Shown here: positions 9,546 through 58,831 of the stretch, piece after piece
Numbering within the stretch: position 1 is the stretch's first letter
Layout of the letters: the number at the start of each line of letters is the position of its first letter
From: Burkholderiales bacterium
GTDB taxonomy: Bacteria; Pseudomonadota; Gammaproteobacteria; Burkholderiales; SG8-39
Direction: 5' to 3'
Length of the DNA: 64,000 nucleotides
Assembly (NCBI GenBank): GCA_035632415.1
Contig: DASQGW010000187.1
Location: 246 to 64,245, forward strand
Translations under genes and position numbers: made by a program
The notes under the pieces: model-generated
Database searches by the model: none
The model's input: the letters and a program-made list of their open reading frames with translations, nothing else
Told to the model about the DNA's origin: nothing

Positions 9546-9546
9546 A

Positions 9547-10011: not shown

Positions 10012-10090
10012 GGGGCTCTCCCTGGGTTCGATGGTGCTAACACGCATCGTAGCGGCCGCATTCCCGTAACCTGCTACCTCTGAGAATCCT

Positions 10091-43150: not shown

Positions 43151-43158
43151 GGGCCGCC

Positions 43159-46041
43159 TTAATGCCTGATAGGAAGGGTGATGGTGAAGGTGGAACCTTT
43201 GCCGGGCGTGCTGGCGAGGCTGATCTCGCCGCCGTGCAGCTCGACGAAGCGCTTGGTGAGCGCGAGGCCGAGGCCCGTGCCTTCGGCCTTGCGCGTGTAG
43301 TCGCGCCCGACCTGCTTGAATTCCTCGAACACCGCTGCCTGGTCCTCCGGCGCGATGCCGATGCCGGTGTCTTGCACAGCGATCGCGACCTTGGTGGTGT
43401 CCAGCTTTGCGATCACGTCCACGCGTCCGCCGTCGGGCGTGAACTTCACGGCGTTGGAGAGGAGGTTGAGCAGGATCTGCTTCACCTTGCGCTCGTCGGC
43501 CTGGAACTCGCCAAGGCGCGAGTCGACGTCGAGCCCGAGCTGGATGCCGTGGCGCTGCGCGCGCTCGCGGATCAGCGTCATCGCGTTGGAGAGCGCCGTC
43601 GGCAGATGGAAGGTCGAGAGATCCAGGTCCATGCGCCCGGCCTCGATCTTCGAAAGGTCGAGGATGTCGTTGATGAGCGAGAGCAAATGCTTGCCCGACT
43701 CGTGGATGTCCTTCAGGTAGTCGGCCTGCTTCTCGTTCAGCTCGCCGAACATCTTGTCCATCAGCACTTCCGAGAAGCCGATGATCGCGTTCAACGGCGT
43801 GCGCAGCTCGTGCGACATGTTGGCGAGGAAGTCCGACTTGTGCTTGTTCGCCACCTCGAGCTGCGCGCTCTTCTCCTGGATCTCGCGGAAGAGCCGCGCA
43901 TTCTGGATCGCGATCACCGCCTGGTCGGCGAAAGTCTTGAGCAGCGCGATCTGCTTTTCCGTGAAGGCGCCGGCGGCGGCGCGGGCGACCCAGATCGCGC
44001 CAATACCACGCCCCTCGAAGAGCATCGGCGCAAAGATGATGGACCGAAAGTCGGTCGTACGCGAGCCGCGCACGACCTGCGGCGGGGCGCTGCCTTCCCT
44101 TACGTCGGGGAAATGCTGGACCTTTTGATCGAGGATCGCGCAGCCGGTGCCGCTCTCGCGCGATAACGGCATCGGGTACATGCGCAACGTTTCCTCTTTG
44201 TGCTCGCCCTCGTACGCCGCGAGCACCACCTGATCGTCCGGCGTGGCGAGAGTGACTCCCACCTTGTTGCCTTCGAACAGGCGCTGGCAGCTCTCGAGGA
44301 TTTTTTCGAACACCGGCTTCGTATCGGCGATGGAACTCGAGATCGCGCCGAGCACCTCGCCCGACGCCTTCTGCTGCTCGAGCGCCTCCTTGGTCTCGTT
44401 GAACAGGCGCACGTTCTCGATCGCGATCGCCGCCTGGTTGGCGAAGGTCGTGGCGAGCGCGATCTGCTTGTCGCTGAACGGTCGCACTTCTGTGCGGCGC
44501 AGGAACATGGTGCCGAACGGGCGTCCCTCGCGCATGAGCGGCACGGCGAGCATCGACTGCTCGCGCCCGAATTTCTGCGCGAGCTCCCAGGTCATCGGGA
44601 ACTCGGTCTGCGCGCGCTCCACGTCTCCGATGTGGATCGCCTTGCCTTCCTCGATGGCGCGGCCGGTCAGCGTCCCGGAGCTGAAGGGCAGGCTGTCGGC
44701 GCCTTGCAGCTCTTCCGGCCCGTTGAAGGCCATGCGGTGCAGCAGCGCGCCCTCGAGCACATAGATGGCCGCTGCGTTCGCCTCGCACAGCCGCGTCGCG
44801 CGCTCGGCCACGGCGTCCAGGACGGGCTTCACGTCGCTCTGCGAGTTCGAAATGACCCTCAGGATCTCCGAGGTGGCGGTCTGCTGGTCGAGCGTCTCCT
44901 GCAGCTCGGCGGTACGCTCCTCGACCTTGCGCTCGAGGCCGGCGTACGACTCGCGCAGCTGCGCAGTCATGCGGTTGAACTGGTCGGCGAGCGCTTCGAG
45001 CTCGTCGCCGGTCTTGACCGAGATCTGCGACTCGAGGTCGCCGGCGCCGATCCTCTGCGCGCCTTCCTGCAGGACGCTGATCGGGCGCGCCATGCTCCGC
45101 GCAAGCCACATGGCGACGAGGGCCGAGAAGAGCAGACCCGCCACGAGGAGCGCGACGGTGCGGAGGACGGTGGCATCGAGCGCCTGGTAGACCTCGGACA
45201 CGGGCTGCTCGACGAACACTTTCCAGCCGAGCGGCGTCGGTTTCGTTCCGGCAAGCGGCTGTTCTCGCGCCGGCTCGATTGGCGCGAACGCGGTGAGGAC
45301 ATACTTGCCGTTGAGATCCTTGGCGAGCATCGCGAGCGAGTCTTCGGAATCCGGAGCGAGCGCAGCCTTCACCTGCTCGAGGCCTCCCATGTCGGTCTTG
45401 CGCAGCACGAGGCCGATGTCGGGATCCGCTACAAGATGGCCGCTGCTGTCGACGACGTAGGCCTTGCCTTTCTGGCCGACCTTGATGCGCGTGACCACAT
45501 CCCAGATGAACTTCAGGTTCACTTCCGCGACCGTCACCGCCCCTGCCTCGCCACCCGAGCGCACCGCGATCGACATGTACGGCTCGGTCTCTTTGCGGAA
45601 GTACACCGGCCCATACCAGGTCTGGCCCGGCCGCGCGTTCTTGAACGCCGGCTCGCCTGACCAGTCGCGCTCCGTGCCCGCCTCGTCCATCTTCAGGCGC
45701 GAGACGGAGAGCTGCTCCCGACCTTTGCCGTCGATCTGCGTGATGTCCGTGACGGCGTGCACGACGCGCAGCAGCTTGAGGAACTCGATGCGGCGCTGCT
45801 CCAGTCCTTCGACGCCGAGCTGCGGCAGCGCCGCGTAGGCGAGCTGCTGCTCGATCTGAAGCACGAACTGCTCGATGCGCGCGGCGGCCGAGAGCGCCTT
45901 CTCGTGCTGCAGGCTCGCCAGCGCGACCTTGTTCTCCTGGTATGAGAAGTAGAGCCCGATGCCGCCGGAAATAAGGAGCGCCCCGCATACCAGCGCGAGG
46001 ATCAGCAGGAAGTAGCGGCGGAAGAGTCTCCCGCGCTGCAC
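43159..46041 (-). CDS. membrane sensor histidine kinase: TM-Cache-like periplasmic domain-TM-HAMP-2 GAF-HisKA-HATPase (960 aa)
   Basis: TM1 YFLLILALVCGALLISGGIGLYF; TM2 VALLVAGLLFSALVAMWLA; HAMP GAGDLESQISVKTGDELEALADQFNRM. Two GAFs of the same subfamily. The kinase core is about 88% identical to that of 31053..35273. GTG start. Confidence 0.9.
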   Translation of the reverse strand: MQRGRLFRRYFLLILALVCGALLISGGIGLYFSYQENKVALASLQHEKALSAAARIEQFVLQIEQQLAYAALPQLGVEGLEQRRIEFLKLLRVVHAVTDITQIDGKGREQLSVSRLKMDEAGTERDWSGEPAFKNARPGQTWYGPVYFRKETEPYMSIAVRSGGEAGAVTVAEVNLKFIWDVVTRIKVGQKGKAYVVDSSGHLVADPDIGLVLRKTDMGGLEQVKAALAPDSEDSLAMLAKDLNGKYVLTAFAPIEPAREQPLAGTKPTPLGWKVFVEQPVSEVYQALDATVLRTVALLVAGLLFSALVAMWLARSMARPISVLQEGAQRIGAGDLESQISVKTGDELEALADQFNRMTAQLRESYAGLERKVEERTAELQETLDQQTATSEILRVISNSQSDVKPVLDAVAERATRLCEANAAAIYVLEGALLHRMAFNGPEELQGADSLPFSSGTLTGRAIEEGKAIHIGDVERAQTEFPMTWELAQKFGREQSMLAVPLMREGRPFGTMFLRRTEVRPFSDKQIALATTFANQAAIAIENVRLFNETKEALEQQKASGEVLGAISSSIADTKPVFEKILESCQRLFEGNKVGVTLATPDDQVVLAAYEGEHKEETLRMYPMPLSRESGTGCAILDQKVQHFPDVREGSAPPQVVRGSRTTDFRSIIFAPMLFEGRGIGAIWVARAAAGAFTEKQIALLKTFADQAVIAIQNARLFREIQEKSAQLEVANKHKSDFLANMSHELRTPLNAIIGFSEVLMDKMFGELNEKQADYLKDIHESGKHLLSLINDILDLSKIEAGRMDLDLSTFHLPTALSNAMTLIRERAQRHGIQLGLDVDSRLGEFQADERKVKQILLNLLSNAVKFTPDGGRVDVIAKLDTTKVAIAVQDTGIGIAPEDQAAVFEEFKQVGRDYTRKAEGTGLGLALTKRFVELHGGEISLASTPGKGSTFTITLPIRH

Positions 46042-46158
46042 CCGCGTGATATCCGCGTGCTGCTCCTTGATGGCTTCAACGGGCTTCAGAGAGCCCTCCC
46101 CTGCGGCTCACTCTATCACCGCAGTGCGCCGGGGGAAGGCCGGGAACTTAACGTCCGG

Positions 46159-46374
46159 TCAGGGACCGTTGTCGCCGTTGTCCCAGAGGCAGGCCTCGCA
46201 GGCCGGCGCCGTCTGCACCTGCGCCTGGACGGCGATGGTGGGGTCCGGGCGGGTCAGCGAGACGGCGACGGCCGCGAGGAGGACGAAAGTCGGAAGAAGC
46301 AGCGCTACGAACAGGAGATGCTCGGCAAACCCCGTCAGCGGCGGCAGGCTGAGCTCGGTCTTGGTGATGGTCAT
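46159..46374 (-). CDS. candidate small single-TM protein with C-terminal CxxC (71 aa)
   Basis: ATG 46374 is preceded by GGGAGGG. Sequence: MTITKTELSLPPLTGFAEHLLFVALLLPTFVLLAAVAVSL...APACEACLWDNGDNGP. GC3-rich. Directly upstream of and co-directional with the Cache kinase. Confidence 0.4.
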   Translation of the reverse strand: MTITKTELSLPPLTGFAEHLLFVALLLPTFVLLAAVAVSLTRPDPTIAVQAQVQTAPACEACLWDNGDNGP

Positions 46375-46450
46375 GGTGCCCTCCCAGTTCATGCCCACTA
46401 GCGTAGGCACTGAGCGCGTTCCGCTCAGCGAACTATGGCTTTCAAGTGAT

Positions 46451-46463
46451 GTGACGAATTCAC
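46451..46463. promoter_or_regulatory. 13-bp palindrome GTGACGAATTCAC upstream of the Crp-like gene (candidate operator)
   Basis: GTGA-N5-TCAC, 33 nt upstream of the GTG start. Its reverse complement matches 47139..47151 at 12 of 13 positions. Confidence 0.3.
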
Positions 46464-46495
46464 CCCCGCGTTGACATCCGTGCAGAATCCACTAC

Positions 46496-47131
46496 GTGAA
46501 GGACCGTTCCGCCGAGGTGTTGCCGCCGCCGCTTCTCGAGGCTGTCGCCAAGGGCGCCATGGTGCGTCCCTTCCCGAAGAACGCGATCATCGTCAGCGAG
46601 GGAGATGAGACCGATTCCCTCTATGTGATCCTCAGCGGCCGTGCCCGGGTGTATGTATCGAGCCCTCAAGGTCGCGAGGTCCAGCTCAACATGATCGGTC
46701 CGGGCGAATACTTCGGCGAGGTGACGCTCGACGGGGGGCCGCGCTCGGCGTCGGTGATGGCGACAGAGGATTCCAAGTGCGCGGTGATCAAGCGCACCGA
46801 GCTCCTCACCCTGGTCGAAAAGGAACCGCAGTTCGCGCTTCATATGGTGCGCAAGCTCGCAAGCCGCGTGCGCGACCTGACCGAGAACGTGCGCAGCCTC
46901 GCGCTGATGGATGTCTATGGGCGCGTGGCGCGGCTGCTCCTCGACCTGGCGGAGGAGCGCGATGGCCGCCTCGTCGTGGACGAGCCGCTCACGCACAAGG
47001 ACATTGCCTCCCGTGTCGGGGCCTCGCGCGAGATGATCAGCCGGATCTTCTCCGACCTCACCCAGGGCGGGTACGTCGGCAAGGAGAGCGGCAAGCTGGT
47101 CATCATGCGGAAACCTCCGCCGCGCTGGTAA
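46496..47131 (+). CDS. Crp/Fnr-family cyclic-nucleotide-binding transcriptional regulator
   Basis: cNMP domain with phosphate-binding cassette FGEVTLDGGPRSASV (G-E...R-S-A). C-terminal HTH THKDIASRVGASREMISRIFSDL. GTG start with no obvious SD; an alternative ATG 21 codons downstream would truncate the domain. Confidence 0.85.
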   Translation: MKDRSAEVLPPPLLEAVAKGAMVRPFPKNAIIVSEGDETDSLYVILSGRARVYVSSPQGREVQLNMIGPGEYFGEVTLDGGPRSASVMATEDSKCAVIKRTELLTLVEKEPQFALHMVRKLASRVRDLTENVRSLALMDVYGRVARLLLDLAEERDGRLVVDEPLTHKDIASRVGASREMISRIFSDLTQGGYVGKESGKLVIMRKPPPRW

Positions 47132-47138
47132 TTGACGG

Positions 47139-47151
47139 GTGAATTAGTCAC
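47139..47151. promoter_or_regulatory. 13-bp palindrome GTGAATTAGTCAC downstream of the Crp-like gene (candidate operator)
   Basis: GTGA-N5-TCAC, 8 nt after the crp-like stop and upstream of the next plus-strand small ORFs. Confidence 0.3.
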
Positions 47152-47210
47152 AACCGGGTAGCGCACGAGTTACTCGGTGCTCCGCGGTGCGCCGCGTAGC
47201 TTGTGCGCCC

Positions 47211-47555
47211 ATGGACCGCCTCGAAGACCTGCTGCGCCGCATCCGCGATCCGCGTGAGTGCACCGAACTCCTCCTCGATGCGCCCCGCGCCGGCGCGCGC
47301 GGCGTGGCGCGCCAGCTCGCCGCGGTCCTTTCTTCTTTACCTGCCGTGCATCGTGAGCTGGGTACGGAACCCGGCCGCCTGGCGGCGGTGGGAGCGCTCG
47401 TGCGTCATGTCGGCGGGCTGGAGCTCCTGCTCCTCAGCCTGGCCGAGCAACAAAGGAAGGAGTCGCGTCATGGATTTCTGGGTCGGGGGGCTCGTGGCCG
47501 TCGTCCAGCTCGTGCTCGCGGGGTTCGTGATGTGGGGCGGCTGGCTGTGCCTTAG
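47211..47555 (+). CDS. candidate hypothetical helical protein (uncertain 3' end)
   Basis: MDRLEDLLRRIRDPRECTELLLDAP... has high GC3 for about 85 codons. GC3 then collapses where the next ORF (frame +1) begins. Confidence 0.25.
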   Translation: MDRLEDLLRRIRDPRECTELLLDAPRAGARGVARQLAAVLSSLPAVHRELGTEPGRLAAVGALVRHVGGLELLLLSLAEQQRKESRHGFLGRGARGRRPARARGVRDVGRLAVP

Positions 47556-47685
47556 CACCTGGCTGAGGGGAGATGCCCCTGAAACGGGCGCCGCGGCTTC
47601 GATGCCGAAGCCGCAAACTTTCGAGCGGGTAGCTACTCTGGTGCTGCTCGCTCTCTTGTGCAGCACGTACGCCGGGCTGCTATGA
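47470..47685 (+). CDS. candidate small two-TM membrane protein (71 aa)
   Basis: ATG 47470 is preceded by AAGGAAGGAG. Sequence: MDFWVGGLVAVVQLVLAGFVMWGGWLCL...VATLVLLALLCSTYAGLL. Confidence 0.4.
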   Translation: MDFWVGGLVAVVQLVLAGFVMWGGWLCLSTWLRGDAPETGAAASMPKPQTFERVATLVLLALLCSTYAGLL

Positions 47686-47704
47686 ACTCCGTCCGGCGTG
47701 CTCT

Positions 47705-48790
47705 TCAGTGGCGAAGCTTCTTCAGGCGAAAAGCGGCAACCGGCTGGGCGAACCCTCGGAGGGTGAGCGGACCGACCTGATCGGTGTCCGCCAGGTGCGC
47801 GACGTCATGCTCGGCCTGGGCATCGAGGATGATCTCGCCGGCACGCGCGGCCCCGCATAACCGCGCCGCCAGGTTCGGCACGTTGCCGATCGCGGCGTAT
47901 TCCCAGCGCTGCTCGAAGCCGATGACGCCGAGCGTGGCTTCGCCCTGCGCGATGCCGATGCCGAGGCCGACGTCGTGGCCGAGCTTCGCCCACGCCTGCG
48001 AGATCGGCGTGAAGGCCTCCTGCAGCGAGAGCGACATGCGTACCGCGCGCTCCGCGGGCCGGTCGATCGGCAGCGGATCGCTGAAGAAGATCATGACGCC
48101 GTCGCCTGCGAAGTGCTCGAGCGTGCCGCCGTATTCGTCGACCGTGCGGCCGAGCGTCACGTGATACGTGCGCAGGAGATCCATCACCTCGTCCGGATCG
48201 GCGCGGTCGGTGAAGGCGGTGAAGCCGCGCAGGTCGAGGAACACTGCGGTGATCTCGCGCCGGTGCGGCTCGAGGATCTCCTCGCCGCCCGCAACGATGG
48301 CCTCGGCGACCGGCTTGGAGAAGAAACGCTTCAACCTGGAAAGGCGCTCGAGCTGCGCCACCTGGTCGCGCACGCGTTCGGCGAGCTTCTCGTTCAAATC
48401 TTTTAGCTCGTCCTGCAGCGCCTTCACGCGGAGCAGCGATCGCACTCGCGCGAAGAGCTCTTCCCAATTGATCGGCTTGGAAAGGAAATCGTCCGCACCG
48501 GCTTCCAGGCCCTTGATGCGCTCGCCTTGCGCATCGAGCGACGTGACGAGGATCACCGGCAGGAGCGCCGTTTCCGGCGCGGCGCGCAGGCGCCGGCAAA
48601 GGTCGTAGCCGTCGACCCCGGGCATCAGGATGTCCGAGACCACGAGATCCGGATGCACCTCGCGCACCAGCTCGAGCGCCTGCTGGCCATCGAGTGCGGT
48701 GTGGACCGCATAGCCGCGCGCCTTCAGCACGCCGGCGAGCATCTCGACGTTCGAGCGCTGATCGTCGACGATCAGGATGCGCGCCGCCAT
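47705..48790 (-). CDS. response-regulator receiver fused to a class III nucleotidyl cyclase (paralog of 41751..42776)
   Basis: REC: ILIVDDQRSNV, DLVVSDILMPGVDG, DDFLSKP. Cyclase: VFLDLRGFT, HFAGDGVMIFF, IGNVPNLAARL. Confidence 0.9.
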   Translation of the reverse strand: MAARILIVDDQRSNVEMLAGVLKARGYAVHTALDGQQALELVREVHPDLVVSDILMPGVDGYDLCRRLRAAPETALLPVILVTSLDAQGERIKGLEAGADDFLSKPINWEELFARVRSLLRVKALQDELKDLNEKLAERVRDQVAQLERLSRLKRFFSKPVAEAIVAGGEEILEPHRREITAVFLDLRGFTAFTDRADPDEVMDLLRTYHVTLGRTVDEYGGTLEHFAGDGVMIFFSDPLPIDRPAERAVRMSLSLQEAFTPISQAWAKLGHDVGLGIGIAQGEATLGVIGFEQRWEYAAIGNVPNLAARLCGAARAGEIILDAQAEHDVAHLADTDQVGPLTLRGFAQPVAAFRLKKLRH

Positions 48791-48806
48791 TACCTGGGAA
48801 ACCGCC

Positions 48807-49910
48807 TCAAAAGACGATCACGCCGCGGGCGTTGCGGCCGGACTCCAGATCGGTAAACGCCTGCGCCGCCTCGGCGACGTTGTAGCGCCGGGTGATGAGC
48901 TCTTCGAGCTTCAGCTCGCCCTTCATGTAGAGCCCAAGCATGCGAGGGAAATCCACTCGCGGCACGCAGGAGCCGAAGTAGCTGCCGGTGATGGTCTTCT
49001 CTTCGAAGGGCAGCGTCATCGTACGGAGCGACGTCGAATCGCCCGGCTTCGCCACGCCCACCACGACCGCGAGCCCGCCGCGGCGGATCGCGCGATAGGC
49101 TGTGGCGGCGAGCTCGCCCGAGCCGACGCATTCGAAAGCGTAGTCGGGACCGCCGCCGGTGAGCTTCTTCAGCGCCTTGGTCGGATCTTCCTTGGCGGCG
49201 AGCAGCACGTCGGTGGCACCGAATCGCTTGGCCATCGCGAGCTTGGGCTCGAGCGTGTCGATGGCGATGATGCGCTCCGCGCCGGCGATGCGCGCACCCT
49301 GGATCACCGAAAGCCCGACGCCGCCGCAGCCGAAGACTGCGACGCTCGAGCCCGGTTGCACCTTGGCGGTGTTGAATACGGCGCCGACGCCGGTCGTCAC
49401 GCCGCAGCCGACGAGCGCGGCGACCTCGAACGGGATCTTCGGGTCGACCTTGACCAGGTTCTCGGCCGAGACCGTGGCGTATTCGGCCATCGCGCCGCAG
49501 CCCGAGAAGATGTTCAGCGGCTGTCCTTTGGCATCGCGCACGCGCGGCGTGCCCTCGAGGGGCGTGGTGAGCGCCTTGCCCTGCTCCAGGCACAGCACCG
49601 GACGGCCCGAGACGCAGAAGCGGCATTTCCCGCACATGTAGATGAAGGAGAAGATGACGTGATCGCCTTTGGCGAACTCGGCGACGCCTTCGCCCACCTC
49701 TTCCACCACGCCCGCCCCTTCGTGCCCGAGCACGAGAGGCAGCGGCAGCGCGATCGTGCCGGTGATCGCGGAGAGGTCCGAATGGCACACGCCGCAGGCG
49801 CCGAGGCGCACGAGCACCTCGCCGCGTTTCGGCGCGTCGACGGTGATTTCTTCGACCAGGACCGGCTTATTGTGCTCGCGGCAGAGAACCGCTTTCGCTT
49901 TGCGTGCCAT
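48807..49910 (-). CDS. zinc-dependent alcohol dehydrogenase (class III/mycothiol-type-like)
   Basis: Start MARKAKAVLCREHNKPV. Motifs: GACGVCHSD, GHEGAGVVEEVG, CGKCRFC, VFGCGGVGLS. The upstream part of the track ORF is shadow. Confidence 0.9.
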   Translation of the reverse strand: MARKAKAVLCREHNKPVLVEEITVDAPKRGEVLVRLGACGVCHSDLSAITGTIALPLPLVLGHEGAGVVEEVGEGVAEFAKGDHVIFSFIYMCGKCRFCVSGRPVLCLEQGKALTTPLEGTPRVRDAKGQPLNIFSGCGAMAEYATVSAENLVKVDPKIPFEVAALVGCGVTTGVGAVFNTAKVQPGSSVAVFGCGGVGLSVIQGARIAGAERIIAIDTLEPKLAMAKRFGATDVLLAAKEDPTKALKKLTGGGPDYAFECVGSGELAATAYRAIRRGGLAVVVGVAKPGDSTSLRTMTLPFEEKTITGSYFGSCVPRVDFPRMLGLYMKGELKLEELITRRYNVAEAAQAFTDLESGRNARGVIVF

Positions 49911-49961
49911 AGCGCGGCCAGTATAGCTGGATAAAATATTCGCTCCTGCTCGGAGACCCCC

Positions 49962-51389
49962 ATGTTGATGAAAGACAAACTGTTCATCGGCGGCCAATGG
50001 ATCGCGCCCGCCGGCCGCGAAACGATCGACGTGCATAACGCGGGCAACGGCGAGGTCATGGGGCGTATTCCCGCCGCGGGCGAGAAGGAAGTGGACGCTG
50101 CGGTGCGCGCGGCGCGCAGCGCCTTCGACGCATGGGCGGCGACGCCGCCGGCGACGCGCGCCGACTACCTGCAGAAGATCTCCGACGGCCTGAAAGCGCG
50201 CTCCGACGAGCTCGCGAAGACGATCGCCCAGGAAGTGGGCATGCCGCTCAAGATGGCGGGCCGCATCCAGGCAGGGCTGCCGATCGCGAACTTTGCCAAC
50301 TACGCGAAACTCGTGCGCGAGTTCCAGTGGGAGCAGAAAGTCGGCAATTCGCTCGTCGTGCGCGAGCCGGTCGGCGTCGTCGCGGCGATCACGCCGTGGA
50401 ACTATCCGCTGCACCAGATCACGCTCAAGCTCGCCCCGGCGCTCGGCGCCGGCTGCACGGTGGTGCTCAAGCCCTCCGAGGTGGCGCCGTTCAACGCGTT
50501 CATCCTCGCCGAGGTGATCGAGCAGGCCGGCCTGCCGAAAGGCGTCTTCAATCTCGTGACGGGCTACGGGGCGAGCGCGGGCGAAGCGCTGGTCAAGCAT
50601 GCCGGCGTCGACATGATTTCATTCACGGGCTCGACCCGCGCAGGCAAGCGCATTTCAGAACTGGCTTCGCAGTCAATCAAGCGCGTGGCGCTGGAGCTCG
50701 GCGGCAAGAGCGCCTCGGTCATCCTCGACGATGCGGACCTGCCGACCGCGGTGAAGAGCACGGTCAACGGCTGCTATCTCAACTCGGGGCAGACGTGCAC
50801 CGCGCTCACGCGAATGCTGGTGCCCGCGTCGAAGTACGACGAAGCGGCGAAGCTCGCTGCCGACGTCGCCAAAGGCTTTACCGTGGGCGATCCACTGGCC
50901 GAGACGACCAAGCTCGGGCCGCTCAGCTCCCAGGCGCAGCTCGAGCGGGTGCGCTCGTACATCAAGAAAGGCCAGGCCGAAGGCGCCGAGCTCGTCGCGG
51001 GCGGCGCCGAGGCGCCGGAGGGCGTGCCGCAGGGCGGCTACTACGTCCGCCCCACGGTGTTTGGCAAGGTCAAGAACAGCATGACCATCGCCCAGGAAGA
51101 GATTTTTGGGCCGGTGCTTTCCATCATTCCCTACGGCGACGAGGACGAGGCGGTGCGCATCGCGAACGACACCGTCTATGGCCTCGCCGGCGCGGTATGG
51201 TCGAAGGACGAGGCCCGCGCGCAGCGCGTCGCGCGCCGCATTCGCGCCGGCCAGATCGACATCAACGGCGGCGCCTTCAACATGAATGCGCCGTTCGGCG
51301 GCTTCAAGCAGTCGGGCCATGGGCGCGAGGCGGGCGTCTACGGGCTGGAGGAATTCCTGGAGTACAAGTCGCTACAGCTCAAAGGATGA
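49962..51389 (+). CDS. NAD(P)-dependent aldehyde dehydrogenase
   Basis: Motifs: [31 protein letters not shown] (catalytic Cys), [18 protein letters not shown]. Confidence 0.9.
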
Positions 51390-53039
51390 ATGCGCCAGCT
51401 TGAGCGGCGGCTGAGGCTCGCCACGGGCCTCATCATTGCCTGCTTCGTCGTCGGGCATTTCCTGAATCACTCGCTCGGCGTCGTGTCGATCGACGCCATG
51501 GACCGGTTGCGCGCGGTGCTCGCGGCATGGTGGCGCAGCGCGCCGGGCACCGTCCTCCTGTATGGCTCGCTGCTCACTCATTTCGCGCTGGCGCTCGTCT
51601 CGCTCTACCGTAGGACGACGCTGCGCATGCCGGCCTGGGAAGCAACCCAGCTCGTCCTCGGCCTCGCGATTCCACCGCTTCTCATCGCGCACATCGTCGG
51701 AACGCGGTTCTACTGGCTGCTCCTCGGGCACAACATCAACTACGAGCGCATGGTCGGCGTGCTGTGGTCGGACCCATGGTCGGCCGCGCGGCAGTCGATC
51801 CTGCTTCTCATCGCCTGGACGCATTTCTGCTTCGGCATGCATTACTGGCTGCGATTGAAGCGCTGGTACGAGACGGCGCTGCCTTCGCTCTTCGCCGCGG
51901 CGCTGTTAATCCCGGCGCTCGCGCTCGCCGGCTTTGCCGCCGCCGGCAACGAGCTCTGGCCGGCGGTGGAGCGCGTGGGCGGCATGCAGAAATACAACCT
52001 CGACCTCGCCGGCATGAAGCCGATCGAGCGCGAGCGGATGCTCGAGTGGCGCCAGGGGCTCGAGCTCGCGTTCTGGGCGCTCCTCGGCGCGACGCTCCTC
52101 GCTCGCTGGCTGCGCACGCGCATCGGCGGCACCTATGAGCTGCGCCACGCCTCGGGGCGCGTGATCACCGCGCCGATCGGCCGCAGCATCCTGGAGGCGG
52201 TGCGCGACGCGGGGCTGCCGCATGCTTCGGTATGCGGCGGCCGGGCCCGCTGCACGACCTGCCGCGTGCGCATTGGCGACGGTCTTGCGGCGCTCGCGCC
52301 GCCGGCCGCGATGGAAGCACAGGCGCTCGCGCGCATCGAGGCCCCGCCGAACGTGCGGCTCGCCTGCCAGACGCGGCCGCGCCACGACGTCTCGGTCATT
52401 CCGCTCCTGCCTCCAGGCGCCGACGCAACCGCGGCGCGTCGGCCGGGCACGGCGCGCGAACGCGAACGCCAGGTGGTGGCGATGTTCGTCGACCTGCGCG
52501 GCTCGACGCGCATCGCCGAATCGCGCCTGCCCTACGACGTCGTCTTCATCATGAACCAGTTCTTCGCCGAGATGTATGCGGCGCTGCGCGCGACGAACGG
52601 CTACTACGCCCAGTTCCGAGGCGATGGCCTGCTCGCGCTGTACGGGCTGGAAGGCGACCTCGCCTCGGCGTGCCGCGACGCGATGCGCGGCGCCGCCGAG
52701 ATGCAACGCCGCATCGAGCGGCTCTCGAAGAGCCTCAGCGCGGAGCTCGCCGAGCCGCTCAAGATCGGCATCGGCGCGCACGCCGGCGTGGCGATCGTCG
52801 GCACCATGGGCCCGCCGGAGGCGCCGATCTACTCGGCGATCGGCGACAACGTCAACATCGCCGCGCGCTTCGAGGGTATGACCAAGGCATACGGCTGCGT
52901 CATGGTGGTCTCCGCCGACACGCTTGCGCAGGCAGGACTCGATCCCCGCGGCGCGCCGGTGCATCGGGTAAGAGTGCGCGGCCGCAACGAGCGGGTGACC
53001 GTCTACGCCGTCGCCGATCCCCGCCAGCTCTTTAATTAA
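51390..53039 (+). CDS. membrane-anchored 2Fe-2S ferredoxin-domain class III nucleotidyl cyclase
   Basis: About 230 aa with 4-5 hydrophobic helices. Ferredoxin motif CGGRARCTTCRV...LACQ. Cyclase motifs MFVDLRGST, QFRGDGLLALY, IGDNVNIAARF. ATG immediately follows the ALDH stop (TGAATG). Confidence 0.85.
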   Translation: MRQLERRLRLATGLIIACFVVGHFLNHSLGVVSIDAMDRLRAVLAAWWRSAPGTVLLYGSLLTHFALALVSLYRRTTLRMPAWEATQLVLGLAIPPLLIAHIVGTRFYWLLLGHNINYERMVGVLWSDPWSAARQSILLLIAWTHFCFGMHYWLRLKRWYETALPSLFAAALLIPALALAGFAAAGNELWPAVERVGGMQKYNLDLAGMKPIERERMLEWRQGLELAFWALLGATLLARWLRTRIGGTYELRHASGRVITAPIGRSILEAVRDAGLPHASVCGGRARCTTCRVRIGDGLAALAPPAAMEAQALARIEAPPNVRLACQTRPRHDVSVIPLLPPGADATAARRPGTARERERQVVAMFVDLRGSTRIAESRLPYDVVFIMNQFFAEMYAALRATNGYYAQFRGDGLLALYGLEGDLASACRDAMRGAAEMQRRIERLSKSLSAELAEPLKIGIGAHAGVAIVGTMGPPEAPIYSAIGDNVNIAARFEGMTKAYGCVMVVSADTLAQAGLDPRGAPVHRVRVRGRNERVTVYAVADPRQLFN

Positions 53040-53057
53040 GGACGTTGTCCGGAATTA
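53034..53057. repeat. 24-nt AT-rich imperfect palindrome, copy B (exact reverse complement of 31028..31051)
   Basis: AATTAAGGACGTTGTCCGGAATTA. It contains the stop codons of both convergent flanking genes (TAA 53037-39, and TTA 53055-57 on the minus strand). Confidence 0.9.
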
Positions 53058-54557
53058 CCGGGGACCTTCGCGGTACGGGCGGCCGGCGGCGTAGAGCGCG
53101 AGGCGATCGCGGGCTTCTTTGCCGAAGCGCTTGTCGAACTCCGGCGAGTCGAGAGCCTTTTGCTGCAAGCGGATCGCCTCTGCGAATTCGCCGGCCTCGG
53201 CGTGCGCCGCCGCAAGCGTGTCGACGAAGTTGGGCTCCTGGTAGCGCGTGAGCTCGCACGCGGTCAACGCGAGCTCCTTCGCGCGCGGCGCGTTGCGCAG
53301 CGCGTCCTGGGTCGACGTGGCGAGGATCCAGGCGAGCGTGTTGTAGACCTCGGCGTCGCGGCTGCCGGAGGCAAGCGCCCGGTCGAGATCCTCCACGGCC
53401 GCCTGGTGCGCGCCGATCGCGCTGTAGAGCTCGCCGCGGGTCGCATAGGCGGTGGCGAGCTCGGGGCCGGAGAGCTTTCCGGCGACGATCGCGCTCGAGC
53501 AGGCCGCAAGGCGGCGCTCGAACGCGAGGCCGCGCGAGGCGCAGCGATCGAAGTCGGTCTCCGCCGCGAGCGCGCGCTCGATGCGCGCCGCCGTCACCGG
53601 ATGCGTGGAGAAATAATCCTGCGTTTTGCCGCTGGCGGCCGGCGGATGGCTGCGCTCCAGCAGCGTCAGCATGTCGGCGAAGGCGCGCGGCGAGATGCCC
53701 GCTTGCCGCATGCGCTGCAGGGCAAAGGCGTCGGCCTCGTCTTCGAACTTGCGCGAATAGCCCGTCTGGAGAAGCACGCTGGGGAGCGCGACCGCGAGGC
53801 TCGTGATCGAGCTCGCGTCGCCGGCGAGCGTCGTGACGAGCCCGAGCACACCTGCGCCTTGCAGCGCGGTGCGCAAGCCGTGCCGCGCGCGCAAGTGCCC
53901 CATCTCATGCGCCAGCACCGCGGCGATCTGGTCGTCGTTTTGCGCGAGCCTCACCAGCTCGTCGGTCATGACGATCGTGCCGCCGGGAAGGGCGAAGGCA
54001 TTCGGGCCGATGCGAGGACAGGCGCGGAGCTCGAGCCGGTATGCGTGATTATCGGCGAGGGCTTCGAGGCGCCGACGCAGCGCGGCCTGGCGGCGCGCCT
54101 CGACCGTACTGGGACCGCAGCCCGTACTTTCGAGGATCTGGAGCGTGCGTGAGCCGAGCGCTGCTTCCGCCTCCGCGGGCACGGCCGCGGCGATGTACTC
54201 GGCGGCGAGCGGCACGCCATGGACGATCGCCCACCACGTGGCTATCGCGACCAGCACCAATGCCGCGACGGCGTAGGGCCAGCGGCGCTCGAAGGTGTGG
54301 ATGCGCGACTCAAGCAGCGCCGCCTCGGGAAACAGCATTCGCACCGCTGCATCGTCCGCCGTGCGAAGCTGCGCGCCGTCCGGCAGCCGCAGGATGCGCG
54401 GCGTGTCGGCGATCGGCGGCTCGACTTTCACGGCCTCGCGCGGAACTCGCACATCGACGCCTTCACCCGTGAGCGTGAGCTCGCTCGTGAAGGCGCGCAC
54501 CCGCACCGCCCTGCTCGCCGAGCTGCGGCCGTCGTAATAGAGCGCGTCGAATTCCAT
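53055..54557 (-). CDS. M48-family zinc metallopeptidase with N-terminal beta-rich/TM region and C-terminal TPR repeats
   Basis: Motifs: AVLAHEMGHLRARH (HExxH), FEDEADAFA. TPR-like C-terminus (AYATRGELYSAIG..., YNTLAWILAT...). Confidence 0.85.
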   Translation of the reverse strand: MEFDALYYDGRSSASRAVRVRAFTSELTLTGEGVDVRVPREAVKVEPPIADTPRILRLPDGAQLRTADDAAVRMLFPEAALLESRIHTFERRWPYAVAALVLVAIATWWAIVHGVPLAAEYIAAAVPAEAEAALGSRTLQILESTGCGPSTVEARRQAALRRRLEALADNHAYRLELRACPRIGPNAFALPGGTIVMTDELVRLAQNDDQIAAVLAHEMGHLRARHGLRTALQGAGVLGLVTTLAGDASSITSLAVALPSVLLQTGYSRKFEDEADAFALQRMRQAGISPRAFADMLTLLERSHPPAASGKTQDYFSTHPVTAARIERALAAETDFDRCASRGLAFERRLAACSSAIVAGKLSGPELATAYATRGELYSAIGAHQAAVEDLDRALASGSRDAEVYNTLAWILATSTQDALRNAPRAKELALTACELTRYQEPNFVDTLAAAHAEAGEFAEAIRLQQKALDSPEFDKRFGKEARDRLALYAAGRPYREGPR

Positions 54558-54560
54558 CCG

Positions 54561-55619
54561 CTAAATGCTGAAGTCGAGCCCGAACATCTCGCCCACTTCT
54601 TCGCCGCTCGCGCTCACTTCGGCCGAGCGCTCGGCGACGAACTGGTCGAGCCCGCCGGCGACGATCGCCGTCGTCTTCTCGGCGCGATAGCGCATAGTCC
54701 GCACCACGGCCCACGGCGTGGCAAGCCCGAGCGTGAAGACGATGGCGAGAATGTTCACGAGATAAAGCAAGGCGAGATCGCGCGCGCGCAGACCGCTCTC
54801 GAAGCGCACCGCGTTCTCGCCGATCGATAGATGGTTCCAGATGGCGTTCGCGAACCGCGCGCGCACGTAGGCGAAGCCAGAGAGGTAGAAGGCGAGGACG
54901 CCGAGCGGCATCACCAGGATGCCCGTGATGGCGCCGGCGGCGCGGGCATTCGCGCCGGACATGCCGACCAACAGGCCGATCAGCATGCCGCACAGGAAAA
55001 AGAGCACGACGAGCAGCAGGACGAGCCCCAGGAACCGCAGGTAGATCCCGTAGAAAGCGCGCGCCAGGCTGGGCAGCGCGCACTGCGCGGTGCCATAGCG
55101 GTGATGGTCGGCGGTGTACTTCGTCAGGCGCGCCTGCGCATACGGGTAGGCGAAACCGATGGTCACGATGACGAACGCGGCGAGCCACGCGAAGAGCTTG
55201 AGCGCGCCGAGGTATTCGCCGTCGAAATGGAAGCGGATGTTGCGATAGGCGGTGTTATGCGCGTTGAACGCAAATGAGCGCACGAGCAGCCATGGAAAAG
55301 CGATCGCGAAGGCGATGGCGACGACGATCTGCAGCGTCACGGAAACATGGCCGGCAGCGCCGTAGAGGACGAAGATGACGACAGCGATGACGCGACCCCT
55401 CAGGATCGCGACCGGATCGCCGCGGTACTCGAAGCCCTCTCCGGCGAGAAGCGTGCTCGCATAGAAGTAGCGCTTCTTGCGCACCTTGGCCCACGGCGAG
55501 TAGATGCCGAGGGTGAGAACGGTCAGCGCGAGGTTGACGATCCAGATGCGGAAGTACTCGCCCGCCCTCGCCGTGAATTCGACCCGATGGCGTTCCGACG
55601 ATCCAGGAACGGCAGCCAT
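54561..55619 (-). CDS. DUF898/YjgN-family polytopic membrane protein
   Basis: FTARAGEYFRIWIVNLALTVLTLGIYSPWAKVR, with a repeat of the same motif near the C-terminus (LVNILAIVFTLGLATPWAVVR). Confidence 0.8.
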   Translation of the reverse strand: MAAVPGSSERHRVEFTARAGEYFRIWIVNLALTVLTLGIYSPWAKVRKKRYFYASTLLAGEGFEYRGDPVAILRGRVIAVVIFVLYGAAGHVSVTLQIVVAIAFAIAFPWLLVRSFAFNAHNTAYRNIRFHFDGEYLGALKLFAWLAAFVIVTIGFAYPYAQARLTKYTADHHRYGTAQCALPSLARAFYGIYLRFLGLVLLLVVLFFLCGMLIGLLVGMSGANARAAGAITGILVMPLGVLAFYLSGFAYVRARFANAIWNHLSIGENAVRFESGLRARDLALLYLVNILAIVFTLGLATPWAVVRTMRYRAEKTTAIVAGGLDQFVAERSAEVSASGEEVGEMFGLDFSI

Positions 55620-55671
55620 GATCCCCTCCCCTAGGACATGCTGACGGAATAATTACGTACTTGGTACGGAA

Positions 55672-56124
55672 TTATCTCTGGCCGCTGCGGGTGCGCGTGA
55701 GCTGGGTGGTGGTGCTGGCGAGGCGCGAAGCGAGGATCCTGATGAGCTCGATCGCCGCGTCCGGGTTCTCGCGGATGATCTTCATGAAGAGCTCCTTGGA
55801 AATCTTGAGCGTCTCGAGCTTGGTCAGCGCCTTGGCGGTCGCGGTGCGCGGCACCTCGCCGACGATGGCGATCTCGCCGAGGAGGTCGTTCTTCCCCATG
55901 TTGTTGATGACGATCGGGCCCGACGGCGTCGGCACCGAGATCTCGACGGTGCCGTCGATGATGACGTAGGCCGAGTCGCCGACGTCCCCGGCGTTGAAGA
56001 TCACCTGGCCGGAGTCGTACTTCAGGCGCTCCGCCGAGAAGCACAGCAGCTTCTGCATGGCCGGCTGGATCTTGCTGAAGATCGGGAACTGGCGGATGAG
56101 TTCGACTTCCTGCTCAAGGCTCAT
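55672..56124 (-). CDS. stand-alone cyclic-nucleotide-binding (CAP_ED) protein, 150 aa
   Basis: Motifs: FPIFSKI, GDSAYVIIDGTVEI. Phosphate-binding cassette LGEIAIVGEVPRTATAKA (G-E...R-T-A). No output domain. Confidence 0.85.
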   Translation of the reverse strand: MSLEQEVELIRQFPIFSKIQPAMQKLLCFSAERLKYDSGQVIFNAGDVGDSAYVIIDGTVEISVPTPSGPIVINNMGKNDLLGEIAIVGEVPRTATAKALTKLETLKISKELFMKIIRENPDAAIELIRILASRLASTTTQLTRTRSGQR

Positions 56125-56139
56125 GGGGCTTTTCTTTCG

Positions 56140-58800
56140 TTACGCTGCAACCAGTAATTTCTGGAGCGGCCCGCCGTTCGATTTCAGCTCGGCGAAGGCG
56201 CCCTTCTCGGCGAGCTTGCCGCGCTCCATGACCAGCACCACGTTGAAGCGCTCCGCCAGGTCGGGCCGCGAGAGCACCCAGGCGACGCCGCGCCCCTTGC
56301 GCTCGGCAAGGATGCCCTCCAGCACGCGCTGCTGCGAGTTCGGATCGAGCGGCCCGAGCGCCTGGTCGACCACCAGCAGCGCCGGCCGCTTGAGGAGCGC
56401 GCGCACCAGCGCGACCTTTTGCCGGTCGGCCACCGGCAGGCGCGCGCCGCCGACGCCGACCTGGTAGTCGAGGCCGATCGTGACGACAAGCGGCCGCAGG
56501 CCGAGCTCGTCGAGGAGCTCGCGCACGAGCGCCGTGATGCGCGTGGCCGCCTCGGCCTGCGCCGTGACGATCTTGCCGAAAAGGATGTTGTCCTGCAGCG
56601 TGGCGGCGCTGTTGTACGTCGCGGCGTCGAAGAATTCGATCGAGCGCTTGAGCTCCGCCGGCAGGCGCGCCGCGAAATGGCGCCGCGCCTCGACGACTCG
56701 CGCCTCGAAGCTTTCGTCGATGAGGCCCAGGCGGTGGCGGGCGGCGATCAGCTTGAAGGGCAGCGAGATCAGCGCGCGCTGCTCCGCAGCCTCCATCTCC
56801 TTCAGCCCCACGTCCTTCGCGCGCTGCAGGATCGCCTCGAACTGCGGCAGGTCCTCCTGGCGGATGAAGCTGTATTGCGCGAAGAATTCATGGCCCGGCG
56901 GCAAGCCGCTGAAGAGCTCGACCATCGTCTCGGCCACCTTGTGGCCGGTGCGGAGCAGGAGCTCATAGAGCCCCGTGTCGTTCAGCACCTGCCGCACGTA
57001 GGCATTCGCCGCCAGGTTGTCGAGGTCGAACGCTTTTCCCACCGGGGTGCCGAAGAGCAGGTTCTCGGCGAGCGTGGCGTTGCGGATGTATTTCTCCGGA
57101 TCGAAGCGCTCGACCCAGTCCTGGATGCCGAGCGACGCAAGGCGCTCGTGCATGCGCAGGCGCGCATCGAGCACGCGCGGGCCGAGCATCGCCGCGCGCC
57201 GCGAGTCGGCGGCGCTGCGCAAGCCCAGCTCGAAGATCGCTTCATCGAGATCCACCACGGAAAGGAGCTCGACGATGCGCCGGTCCATCTCATCGTGATT
57301 CGAGACGCCGGCGGCGGCGTAGTCGATCCAGTCGGCGTTGATATCGAGCGTGCTGTTGCCGGTGCGGGCCGCCTCCTTCAGCTCCGCTTCGCGCTGCTGG
57401 CGCACGTCATCGGTGTATCCCGCGTCCCGCACCGGTTCATGCTTCAGTCCATAGACGATGTTCTCCCGCACGCTCGTCGGGAAGAGATAGGCGGGCGCGC
57501 CAACGTAGGCGAGCGAGCGGCCGGTGACCGCCTCCGGGGCGCGCGTCATGTCGATGCCGCCCATCTCGATCGTGCCGTTGGTCGGCGGCACGAGGCGCGC
57601 GAGCATCTGCGCGAGCTCGCTCGCCCCGCCCGCCTGGCGGCCGACGATGGCGATGTGGTCGCTCATGCTGCATTCGAACGAGGCGTCTTCCACCACGCGG
57701 CTGCCGGCATCGTCCACCAGCGACAGGCGCGCCGCCTTCAGGCGACCCTCCTGCGGCATCGGCGGCGACTTGACCAACGCCTGCAGCTCGGCCGGCGCTA
57801 CTTCCTCCGCGGTGAATTGCTCGACGACCTGGTTGTACTTGATCTCGACGTCCATCCTCTGCTGGTCCCAGTCGATCAGCTCCTTCACCGGCCCCGGCAG
57901 GTCCTTGTACGCGGCGATCACGGCGACGAGCGCGCCGATGTCGAGCTTGCCGACGATGACGAGGTAGCCGCCGAGCGTGTAGAAGAGGAACGGGGTCACC
58001 TGCGCGAGGAAGTTATTCAGGAACTTGACCATGAACTTCCGCTGGTAGAGCTCGAAGCGGATGTTGAAGATCCTTCCCAGCCGGTCCGAAATTTCCGCCC
58101 GTTCATAGTTGGACGTGTCGTGGGCGTGGATCTCGGCGGCGCCTTCGACGCACTCGGCGATGCGCCCGGCGAGCGCGCGCGCGGTGAGCTGGCGCTCGCG
58201 GCCGAGCACCAGCTGGCGCCTGCGCAGGCGCGGGATGATGAACGCCTGCACGCCGACGATGCCGAGCGCGATCAGGCCGAGCACCCAGTGCTGGTACATG
58301 ATGAAGAACATCGCCGTGAGCGCCTGGCCGCCGAGGAAGAGCGGCGTGATGAGCGCGTCGCCGATGAAGCCGCCCAGGGGCTCCACCTCGTCCTTGACCA
58401 TCGTCGCCATCTCGGCGGGCTTCACGCGCCGGAAGCGCGTGAGCGGAAAGCGCAGGATGAAGTCGAAGAGCGAGAAGCGCAGGCGCCTCAGCATGCGCTC
58501 GCCCATCCAGCCCTTCATGGTGTTGATCTGGAACTTGAGCCAGCCGTTGAGGACGATCAGGCCGAGAAACAGGATCGAGAGCGCGAAGAGATACGGGATG
58601 CGGTGCAGGTCGAAGCCGAGCAGGCGCCTCACCGAGTCGGCGGTCGGGAAGGAGATGCCCTGGATCGCCTGGTTGATGATCGTCTTCGGCAGGTCGAGGG
58701 ACAGGTAATAGACCACCATCGACGCGACGACGAGCGGCACGATCAGCAGCTGATCGCGCTTGCTGTACTTCAGGATGAAGCCGAAGAGGCTGCGTTCCAA
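56140..58800 (-). CDS. ABC-exporter-like protein (TMD + NBD) with degenerate ATPase motifs and expanded NBD (886 aa)
   Basis: N-terminal 6-TM-type domain. Walker A-like GRQAGGAS (no Lys), signature-like LPVAD, Walker B-like LLVVDQ, H-loop position VLSRP. About 395 aa lie between Walker A and the signature. Confidence 0.75.
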   Translation of the reverse strand: MERSLFGFILKYSKRDQLLIVPLVVASMVVYYLSLDLPKTIINQAIQGISFPTADSVRRLLGFDLHRIPYLFALSILFLGLIVLNGWLKFQINTMKGWMGERMLRRLRFSLFDFILRFPLTRFRRVKPAEMATMVKDEVEPLGGFIGDALITPLFLGGQALTAMFFIMYQHWVLGLIALGIVGVQAFIIPRLRRRQLVLGRERQLTARALAGRIAECVEGAAEIHAHDTSNYERAEISDRLGRIFNIRFELYQRKFMVKFLNNFLAQVTPFLFYTLGGYLVIVGKLDIGALVAVIAAYKDLPGPVKELIDWDQQRMDVEIKYNQVVEQFTAEEVAPAELQALVKSPPMPQEGRLKAARLSLVDDAGSRVVEDASFECSMSDHIAIVGRQAGGASELAQMLARLVPPTNGTIEMGGIDMTRAPEAVTGRSLAYVGAPAYLFPTSVRENIVYGLKHEPVRDAGYTDDVRQQREAELKEAARTGNSTLDINADWIDYAAAGVSNHDEMDRRIVELLSVVDLDEAIFELGLRSAADSRRAAMLGPRVLDARLRMHERLASLGIQDWVERFDPEKYIRNATLAENLLFGTPVGKAFDLDNLAANAYVRQVLNDTGLYELLLRTGHKVAETMVELFSGLPPGHEFFAQYSFIRQEDLPQFEAILQRAKDVGLKEMEAAEQRALISLPFKLIAARHRLGLIDESFEARVVEARRHFAARLPAELKRSIEFFDAATYNSAATLQDNILFGKIVTAQAEAATRITALVRELLDELGLRPLVVTIGLDYQVGVGGARLPVADRQKVALVRALLKRPALLVVDQALGPLDPNSQQRVLEGILAERKGRGVAWVLSRPDLAERFNVVLVMERGKLAEKGAFAELKSNGGPLQKLLVAA

Positions 58801-58831
58801 GAGCGGAAATTCCCCGCTACCATTCTAGTGC

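Follow-up and report, generated by a model that had tools for sequence, protein, structure and literature searches.

In enterobacteria, genes for alcohol and aldehyde dehydrogenases are controlled by cyclic AMP (cAMP) and CRP, and in Pseudomonas aeruginosa the oxidation of ethanol is under two-component control. In both cases, second-messenger or phosphorelay signalling is linked with genes for alcohol or aldehyde oxidation; the genes for the cyclase or the kinases are located elsewhere, and their products act on the promoters of the dehydrogenase genes. To our knowledge, bacteria with dozens of class III nucleotide cyclases are common, but hardly any of these enzymes has a known physiological context. 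CyaC (SMc01818) of Sinorhizobium meliloti has been described as an adenylate cyclase with six transmembrane (TM) helices, two haems b, and a 2Fe-2S cluster (Wissig et al. 2019, as cited in PMC10463352). As set out in the latter source, oxidation by quinones activates CyaC, which signals together with the CRP-like regulator Clr (Klein et al. 2023, PMC10463352). The locus considered here lies at positions 47705-53039 of a 64,000-nucleotide stretch, referred to as the window, of contig DASQGW010000187.1 from the Burkholderiales assembly GCA_035632415.1. A Zn-dependent alcohol dehydrogenase (ADH) and an aldehyde dehydrogenase (ALDH) are encoded divergently, and each gene is followed by a class III cyclase gene, coding for a receiver-containing cyclase (REC-cyclase) behind the ADH and for a CyaC-type membrane cyclase behind the ALDH. 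In contrast to the enterobacterial and P. aeruginosa systems, the cyclase genes thus lie inside the putative dehydrogenase operons, and the promoter region yielded no regulator site.

The locus consists of the following features:

47705-48790, minus strand: REC-cyclase, open reading frame of 361 aa (Pfam Response_reg, E 1.5e-29, and Guanylate_cyc, E 5e-16)
48791-48806, minus strand: 16-nt junction between the ADH and REC-cyclase genes, read from the sequence
48807-49910, minus strand: Zn-ADH, 367 aa (Pfam ADH_N and ADH_zinc_N)
49911-49961: divergent spacer of 51 bp between the ADH and ALDH genes
49962-51389, plus strand: NAD(P)-dependent ALDH, 475 aa (Pfam Aldedh, E 1.4e-167)
51390-53039, plus strand: CyaC-type membrane cyclase, 549 aa (Pfam Fer2, E 2.2e-9, and Guanylate_cyc; hydrophobic N-terminus)

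These coordinates, gene contents, and junctions, including the arrangement of both pairs around the 51-bp spacer, had been given in a first-pass annotation and all hold on re-reading of the sequence. The REC-cyclase gene is the distal gene of the ADH operon, and on the opposite strand the ALDH stop codon TGA (51387-51389) abuts the cyclase ATG (51390-51392) in a TGAATG junction. As had also been proposed, both dehydrogenase-cyclase pairs look like operons, judging from genes on the same strand and from junctions that leave no room for a terminator or promoter and are kept across species. The evidence for their organization as operons is good; the physiological link is presumptive.

The preferred reading, to which a probability of roughly 0.55 is assigned, is that of two operons in which each cyclase is slaved to a dehydrogenase promoter, a second input gates its activity, and the products of neighbouring genes read the output. 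The catabolic-type NAD-dependent Zn-ADH and the ALDH would be transcribed divergently from two back-to-back -10-like boxes, and each transcript would end with a class III cyclase gene that is translationally coupled to the dehydrogenase gene. Each cyclase would be made in proportion to its dehydrogenase, because there is no room for a promoter of its own. The REC-cyclase would receive its second input when Asp53 is phosphorylated, probably by GAF/Cache kinases encoded nearby. The CyaC-type cyclase would sense the redox state of the quinone pool through two haems b and a 2Fe-2S cluster, like S. meliloti CyaC, and NADH from the ADH and ALDH reactions would feed this pool. The cyclic nucleotide would be read by an adjacent Crp-like regulator and by a stand-alone protein binding cyclic nucleoside monophosphates (cNMP). 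In this way, the locus would report that the oxidation pathway is on, together with the signalling or redox state of the cell.

Conservation of the ADH→REC-cyclase pairing was analyzed in 151 genomes of the family from 34 genera, in which an ADH orthologue (at least 63% identity) is encoded in 89 genomes from 19 genera. A REC-cyclase gene lies directly downstream on the same strand in 33 of these 89 genomes and in 9 of the 19 genera, which are cited here by number: g1 (9 of 10 genomes with the ADH, the tenth being cut by a contig end), g145 (9 of 9), g163 (5 of 5), g26 (5 of 8), g147, g159, and g164 (1 of 1 each), and g171 and g172 (1 of 2 each). In every one of these 33 genomes, the REC-cyclase gene begins within about 25 nt of the ADH stop codon or overlaps it. 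This distribution shows that the ADH half of the locus is not due to chance. The first-pass annotation had allowed for a juxtaposition confined to this genome; ADH→REC-cyclase was found in nine genera, and ALDH→cyclase in further species of the genus. An interim view, according to which sister genera have no cyclase beside the ADH, was overturned by the family-wide search and is true for some genomes only.

The gap between the ADH and REC-cyclase genes ranges from 0 to about 30 nt within the genus of the window, and it is 25 nt or less, or replaced by a TGATG overlap, in seven other genera. The junctions of both dehydrogenase-cyclase pairs vary in sequence between species and yet stay tight or overlapping (ATGA, GTGA, TGATG, TAGATG), and behind the ADH gene the N-terminal extensions vary in length. 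Whole-gene insertions were observed between the ADH and ALDH genes, between the ALDH and cyclase genes, and beyond both cyclase genes, and none between the ADH and REC-cyclase genes, where the only insert is an 80-nt palindromic element in one species. The ADH→REC-cyclase pair is, as judged from its gene order across genera, an old and conserved two-gene operon. A divergent ALDH gene is its usual but not universal neighbour: g159 and g145 have none, and in g163 and g164 the distance is about 1.1 kb.

Two kinds of inserted elements were observed around these genes. Palindromes about 80 nt long that carry GGGGTCAGACCCC-type cores and resemble repetitive extragenic palindromic or miniature inverted-repeat transposable elements (REP/MITE) sit exactly in tight junctions, namely the ALDH/cyclase junction of locus L038 (genome G017) and the ADH/REC-cyclase junction of L033 (G026). 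In several species, pairs of membrane-protein genes lie between the ADH and ALDH genes, encoding either DUF2339 and DUF3999 or DUF2157 and GDYXXLXY proteins (L033, 12181-16403; L041; L160, 6589-9486). Both kinds of gene pairs break the divergent promoter layout and leave ADH→REC-cyclase intact.

The same data bear on the possible, although less favoured, explanation that the cyclase genes are neutral hitch-hikers. Being abundant and often duplicated, they would have landed at operon ends beside a signalling island and would be expressed by read-through, with no specific tie to alcohol or aldehyde oxidation. The assembly of 4.08 Mb in 228 contigs encodes 19 cyclase domains, of which 4 lie inside 20 kb at this locus; the proper null expectation is therefore a dehydrogenase pair within a signalling island and not two independent coincidences. 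The ADH-linked REC-cyclase is also 56% identical to its paralogue in a neighbouring kinase operon, which suggests local duplication. Against neutral hitch-hiking stand the tight ADH→REC-cyclase junctions in nine genera at 65-80% protein identity while neighbouring junctions were repeatedly broken by insertions, the re-creation of translational coupling with differing junction sequences, and the invariance of the catalytic residues and of an odd base-specifying pair described below.

A different picture is obtained for ALDH→cyclase. Orthologues of the 2Fe-2S cyclase (70-86% identity) are encoded in 20 of the 36 other species of the window's genus. The ALDH gene lies directly upstream in 16 of the orthologous loci, is separated from the cyclase gene by one co-directional gene in 3, and is deleted in 1. 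In 10 other species, an ATGA or GTGA overlap takes the place of the TGAATG junction of the window. In this clade, the pair is embedded in a syntenic block of 14 kb in the order Crp; REC-cyclase ← ADH; ALDH → cyclase; cNMP-binding ← ABC; MBL → cyclase 4 → GGDEF. In eight other species of the genus, ADH→REC-cyclase is accompanied by a divergent ALDH gene that is followed by a gene for a short-chain dehydrogenase/reductase (SDR) in the two of these loci annotated. In g26 the ALDH gene is followed by an acyl-CoA synthetase gene, and in g28 by an SDR gene. Cyclase orthologues in g143 and g147 (67-68% identity) have a gene for a cNMP-GGDEF-EAL protein or for OsmC upstream and no ALDH gene. Among 75 wider cyclase homologues from many phyla (40-61% identity), no ALDH or ADH gene was found within 6 kb, except for two unrelated, distant ALDH matches.

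In a tree of ADH and ALDH, 15 loci with the CyaC-type cyclase form one clade (support 99), and one further locus with this cyclase, L032, branches outside; the tree does not separate two gains from a single gain followed by a loss. As the pairing vanishes outside one subclade, it represents a young junction of pre-existing blocks. ALDH→cyclase is, by its distribution, a young fusion of two such blocks in one subclade of one genus. Hitch-hiking fits the ALDH half of the locus well and the ADH half poorly. It is further favoured by the slot behind the ALDH gene, which in relatives is taken by genes for an SDR, an acyl-CoA synthetase, or a UDP-glucose dehydrogenase, and by the presence of the CyaC-type cyclase together with the cNMP-binding/ABC/MBL block and without an ALDH in g143 and g147.

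Co-directional inserts of about 1.3 kb between the ALDH and cyclase genes occur at the same position in L032 (7664-9157), L034, L007, L014, and L017. The insert of L032, the only one identified, is a UDP-glucose/GDP-mannose dehydrogenase gene, which makes it the third gene for an NAD-dependent dehydrogenase in this operon. In a g143 locus (L209, G390:C74, 4546-8112), a gene for a cNMP-binding-GGDEF-EAL protein abuts the CyaC-type orthologue stop to start, linking cyclic mononucleotide and cyclic di-GMP signalling.

In genome G015 (L035, G015:C24, around 10640-10790), nearly all of the ALDH was removed by an in-frame deletion that left a mini open reading frame of 28 codons, consisting of 24 N-terminal codons and the last four. 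The deletion keeps the start and stop codons of the ALDH gene, the divergent promoter boxes, and a TGATG junction to the cyclase gene. This is compatible with a dependence of the cyclase on the expression signals of the ALDH gene, as a single case from a metagenome-assembled genome (MAG). The cyclase gene of G015 (9028-10669) has a 1-nt frameshift at residue 444/445, which reflects either decay or a MAG error.

The REC-cyclase consists of a PleD-like receiver, a coiled linker, and a class III catalytic domain (CHD). Its best-matching structures in the PDB are the PleD receiver (E 1e-50) and the CHD of P. aeruginosa CyaB (E 2e-27). The phospho-acceptor D53, as aligned to the first receiver (D1) of PleD, is invariant in 51 orthologues, and the acidic pair D9/D10, T83, and K105 were read from the translation. 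The receiver thus shares all phospho-acceptor features with the first receiver of Caulobacter PleD and differs in its output, which is a CHD cyclase and not a GGDEF domain. In an alignment to Cya2 (PDB 2w01), the metal-binding residues D186 and D230 as well as N306 and R310 are invariant in the 51 orthologues, and both metal aspartates, the asparagine, and the arginine are shared with the catalytic domain of CyaB (PDB 3r5g). In contrast to PleD and CyaB, the REC-cyclase gene is fixed behind an ADH gene in nine genera.

The residues that specify the base are unusual in both cyclases. Canonical pairs were taken as Lys with Asp or Thr for adenylate cyclases and as Glu with Cys, Ser, or Gly for guanylate cyclases, and neither pair is present in the REC-cyclase (His/Ala) or in the CyaC-type cyclase (Gln/Ser). 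The pair His226/Ala299 of the REC-cyclase is invariant in the 51 orthologues; the corresponding pair of CyaB is presumably Lys/Thr. At the first of the two base-specifying positions, the four cyclases of the window (41760-61352) have His, Arg, Gln, and Arg, and in no case the canonical Lys or Glu. On the strength of the invariant catalytic residues, and of Asp53 in the REC-cyclase, both enzymes look catalytically active.

Over its full length, the membrane cyclase shares 42% identity with a Sinorhizobium protein whose gene lies behind a LysR gene, an arrangement reported for cyaC/smc01817. Five clear hydropathy peaks (around residues 10-31, 53-71, 84-105, 160-183, and 223-241) and a His/Trp-rich sixth helix around 130-153, assigned by eye below the hydropathy threshold, result in about six TM helices. 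H64, H101, and H145 are histidine in 76 of 76 members of the CyaC-type family, and H23 in all 50 rows that reach this position; these four conserved TM histidines are predicted to be the ligands of two haems b. The 2Fe-2S ligands C282, C288, C291, and C326 are invariant in all 76 members, as are D368, D412, and R493 of the cyclase domain aligned to Cya2 (PDB 2w01), where N489 is also present. The base-specifying pair is Gln408/Ser482 and not Lys/Thr; within the family, the first purine-specifying position is Gln in 46 members and Lys in 23.

On the basis of these features, the cyclase of the window belongs to the CyaC family. It has in common with S. meliloti CyaC the approximately six TM helices with conserved histidines, the 2Fe-2S ferredoxin domain, the class III cyclase domain, and a CRP-like regulator in its signalling context. 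It differs in the base-specifying residues, with Gln in place of Lys and Ser in place of Thr, and its haems, Fe-S cluster, and quinone response are predictions. It also differs in gene context, as S. meliloti cyaC lies between LysR and TetR regulator genes, whereas the gene of the window is translationally coupled to the ALDH gene. Membership in a quinone-responsive family makes a redox link mechanistically plausible. The first-pass annotation had tied cNMP signalling to alcohol/aldehyde flux or to the resulting redox load; the redox part gains plausibility from the CyaC family, whereas a link to alcohol or aldehyde flux was not supported and stays conjectural.

In the spacer at 49911-49961, two -10-like boxes stand back to back. 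The ADH gene has TATACT on the minus strand (complementary to 49920-49925), 9 nt ahead of its ATG, and on the plus strand there is TAAAAT (49932-49937; TAGAAT variant in relatives) for the ALDH gene, which is preceded by GGAG 6 nt ahead of its ATG. Of all spacer elements, only these two boxes are conserved across species and genera; they recur in 13 species within the genus and in three further genera. Genus-wide, the ATG of the ADH gene lies 6-9 nt past its box, which suggests that the ADH mRNA is leaderless or nearly so in this genus. In other genera, the ADH leader is longer and contains a Shine-Dalgarno sequence. In the shortest spacers (L040, L042, L045), the distance between box and ATG is likewise only about 6 nt for the ALDH gene.

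A scan of 10 kb for sigma-70 promoters found no full -35/-10 promoter-like site and no convincing -35 box, and a terminator scan gave 8 terminator-like matches with 5.0 +/- 2.5 expected, which is chance level. These scans bear on the explanation that the genes adjoin and are transcribed separately, with internal promoters in the 3' ends of the ADH and ALDH genes driving the cyclases. High-GC genomes often have no recognizable promoters, so that the negative scan is weak, and a weak 5-bp hairpin, followed by a T-rich run, overlaps the final codons of the ADH gene (48832-48820). Separate transcription is nevertheless very improbable in view of the overlapping stop and start codons in most species, the chance level of terminator-like matches, and the in-frame ALDH deletion of G015, which keeps the ALDH promoter region and the junction and creates no new one.

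GTGA-N5-TCAC palindromes, found in a scan with 0 and 1 mismatch, flank the Crp-like gene at 46451-46463 and 47139-47151. The upstream palindrome recurs 30-50 nt before the Crp-like gene in at least 8 species and is a candidate autoregulatory operator; its spacing is one base shorter than that of the E. coli CRP site. The ADH/ALDH spacer was also considered as the site of a Crp-type operator, and this was rejected, as the palindrome is confined to the two flanks of the Crp-like gene. Its absence from the spacer leaves a direct link between the Crp-like regulator and the ADH and ALDH promoters without support from the sequence, and the lack of a common regulator motif counts in favour of hitch-hiking. 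An Rfam search of 45900-56300 gave no match at E <= 0.1. As to transcripts, two soil metatranscriptomes share 6-7% of words with the locus, and the other datasets that hold it are DNA metagenomes. One metatranscriptome contig ends exactly at the ALDH stop codon and then diverges.

The ADH is a Zn-dependent medium-chain enzyme of class III-like type with an NAD-type Rossmann fold and is the sole copy of its type in the genome. The motifs CHSD, GHE, CxxCxxCx7C, and GCGGVG, representing catalytic and structural zinc ligands and the NAD fold, are all present. Its best match in the PDB is a class III ADH (E 1.6e-76), and its top NCBIfam matches are TIGR03989 (365.7 bits) and class III ADH (323.2 bits), both under the cut-off. 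The ALDH keeps the catalytic motifs ELGGK (Glu245, general base) and GQTC (Cys279), with 6x9l, 3i44, 3ty7, and 3b4w as best PDB matches. Neither enzyme reached the cut-off of any substrate-defined NCBIfam equivalog.

For the ADH, whose best match is a nicotinoprotein-type family below the cut-off, this fits the idea that the dehydrogenases serve signalling, either by making or removing a signal alcohol or aldehyde for the Cache/GAF kinases or as a dedicated source of NADH for the redox input of the CyaC-type cyclase. A dCache sensor kinase encoded 3 kb away and the third NAD-dependent dehydrogenase between ALDH and cyclase in L032 point in the same direction. This idea is unlikely, as in sister genera the divergent ADH and ALDH genes are followed by an acyl-CoA synthetase or SDR gene, which is the usual layout for catabolism of alcohols to acyl-CoA, with no signalling genes near, and the kinase cluster is unlinked to the ADH/ALDH pair in the second clade of the genus.

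The locus is part of a signalling island that spans 31-64 kb of the window according to Pfam and includes the following features:

41751 to about 42770, minus strand: second REC-cyclase, the 56% identical paralogue of the ADH-linked enzyme (tblastn)
42776-43162, minus strand: single REC protein (Pfam), same two-component cluster
43159-46041, minus strand: dCache-HAMP-GAF kinase (Pfam), part of the two-component cluster at 41751-46041
46496-47131, plus strand: Crp/Fnr-type regulator (Pfam cNMP_binding and HTH_Crp_2), convergent with the REC-cyclase gene
53055-55619, minus strand: M48-TPR peptidase and DUF898 protein (Pfam), an insertion between the CyaC-type cyclase and cNMP-binding genes
55672-56124, minus strand: stand-alone cNMP-binding protein (Pfam), part of the block at 55672-59662
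56140-58800, minus strand: ABC-like protein (Pfam), same block
58829-59662, plus strand: MBL-fold protein (Pfam), same block
within 31-64 kb: two GAF kinases with 5 and 10 GAF domains
within 31-64 kb: fourth cyclase and PAS-GGDEF protein

The kinases of the cluster at 41751-46041 are candidate phosphodonors for the REC-cyclase, and the Crp-like regulator is a candidate reader of the cyclic nucleotide. The Crp-like gene adjoins the ADH operon in two genera, namely in one clade of g1 and in g26. The cNMP-binding/ABC/MBL block travels with the CyaC-type cyclase, being located downstream of it in g1 and also in g143 and g147, where an upstream ALDH gene is absent. Beside the CyaC-type cyclase gene, an M48 gene was seen in no genome other than this one and G006. 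The cNMP-binding gene follows within a few dozen nt of the cyclase gene in most relatives, and some have other inserts of about 0.8-1 kb at this position. The M48-TPR/DUF898 genes are thus a lineage-specific insertion and not part of the module. As this insertion splits genes that otherwise adjoin, it probably does not belong to one functional operon with the ABC-like and cNMP-binding genes.

Elsewhere in the genome (G000), the neighbours of cyclase genes encode a bicupin protein, MTHFR, a binding protein, and a GNAT protein, and the idea that the cyclases of this genome generally trail dehydrogenases was rejected on these grounds. A bicupin dioxygenase-like gene and an MTHFR gene tightly precede other cyclase genes (C224:20807-23534, C214:5608-8267, C18:460-3475). 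The pairing of bicupin with a CyaC paralogue is not conserved. One other cyclase gene of G000 is followed by a gene for an MBL-fold protein matching class II cAMP phosphodiesterase (PF02112, E 1e-13). That other cyclases trail bicupin and MTHFR genes, with the bicupin pairing unconserved, is what hitch-hiking would lead one to expect.

Several of these results weigh against the reading of two dehydrogenase-slaved cyclases. The conserved synteny extends over the whole block including convergent, non-operonic junctions, so that conservation within the genus alone is weak evidence of selection. No REC-cyclase lies behind the ADH in 10 of the 19 genera with an ADH orthologue, and ALDH→cyclase is absent in the other clade of the genus, in g26, g27, and g28, around the g143/g147 orthologues, and around the 75 wider homologues. 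Both cyclases have non-canonical base-specifying residues (His/Ala and Gln/Ser), with Gln408 in the window as opposed to Lys in the Sinorhizobium orthologue. Cyclase genes elsewhere in the genome trail unrelated metabolic genes (bicupin, MTHFR), and one of these pairings is unconserved. The GTGA-N5-TCAC palindrome never occurs in the ADH/ALDH spacer, neither in the window at 0 and 1 mismatch nor in orthologous spacers. The metatranscriptome contigs on the region are short and mostly 85-90% alike, and hence derive mostly from other organisms.

The mirror-image design seen by the first-pass annotation does not describe one unit, as ADH→REC-cyclase is old and occurs in nine genera, whereas ALDH→cyclase is young and confined to one subclade. 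The two pairings arose separately, and the mirror symmetry is thus a by-product. The individual parts are members of known families; among the results listed by a limited literature search, none described a cyclase gene fixed downstream of an ADH gene or the coupling of an ALDH to a CyaC-type cyclase. A more far-reaching and rather speculative proposal is that of an undescribed module for signalling the metabolic state. In this proposal, a phosphorylation-gated His/Ala cyclase, whose product would be mixed or other than plain cAMP or cGMP, would be made only when an alcohol-oxidation promoter fires, in one lineage a quinone-sensing cyclase would have been recruited behind the ALDH, and expression of the pathway, input from kinases, and the respiratory redox state would meet in one second-messenger pool with a dedicated Crp-like reader.

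All members of the group are uncultured soil Burkholderiales, and the ALDH half of the locus is young and local. Within this scope, a cyclase gene locked behind one dehydrogenase gene in nine genera provides a concrete and testable context for a receiver-regulated cyclase. The invariant His/Ala pair marks a cyclase subfamily whose product merits determination, and the CyaC-type cyclase recruited behind an ALDH gene provides a natural case for what redox-sensing cyclases report.

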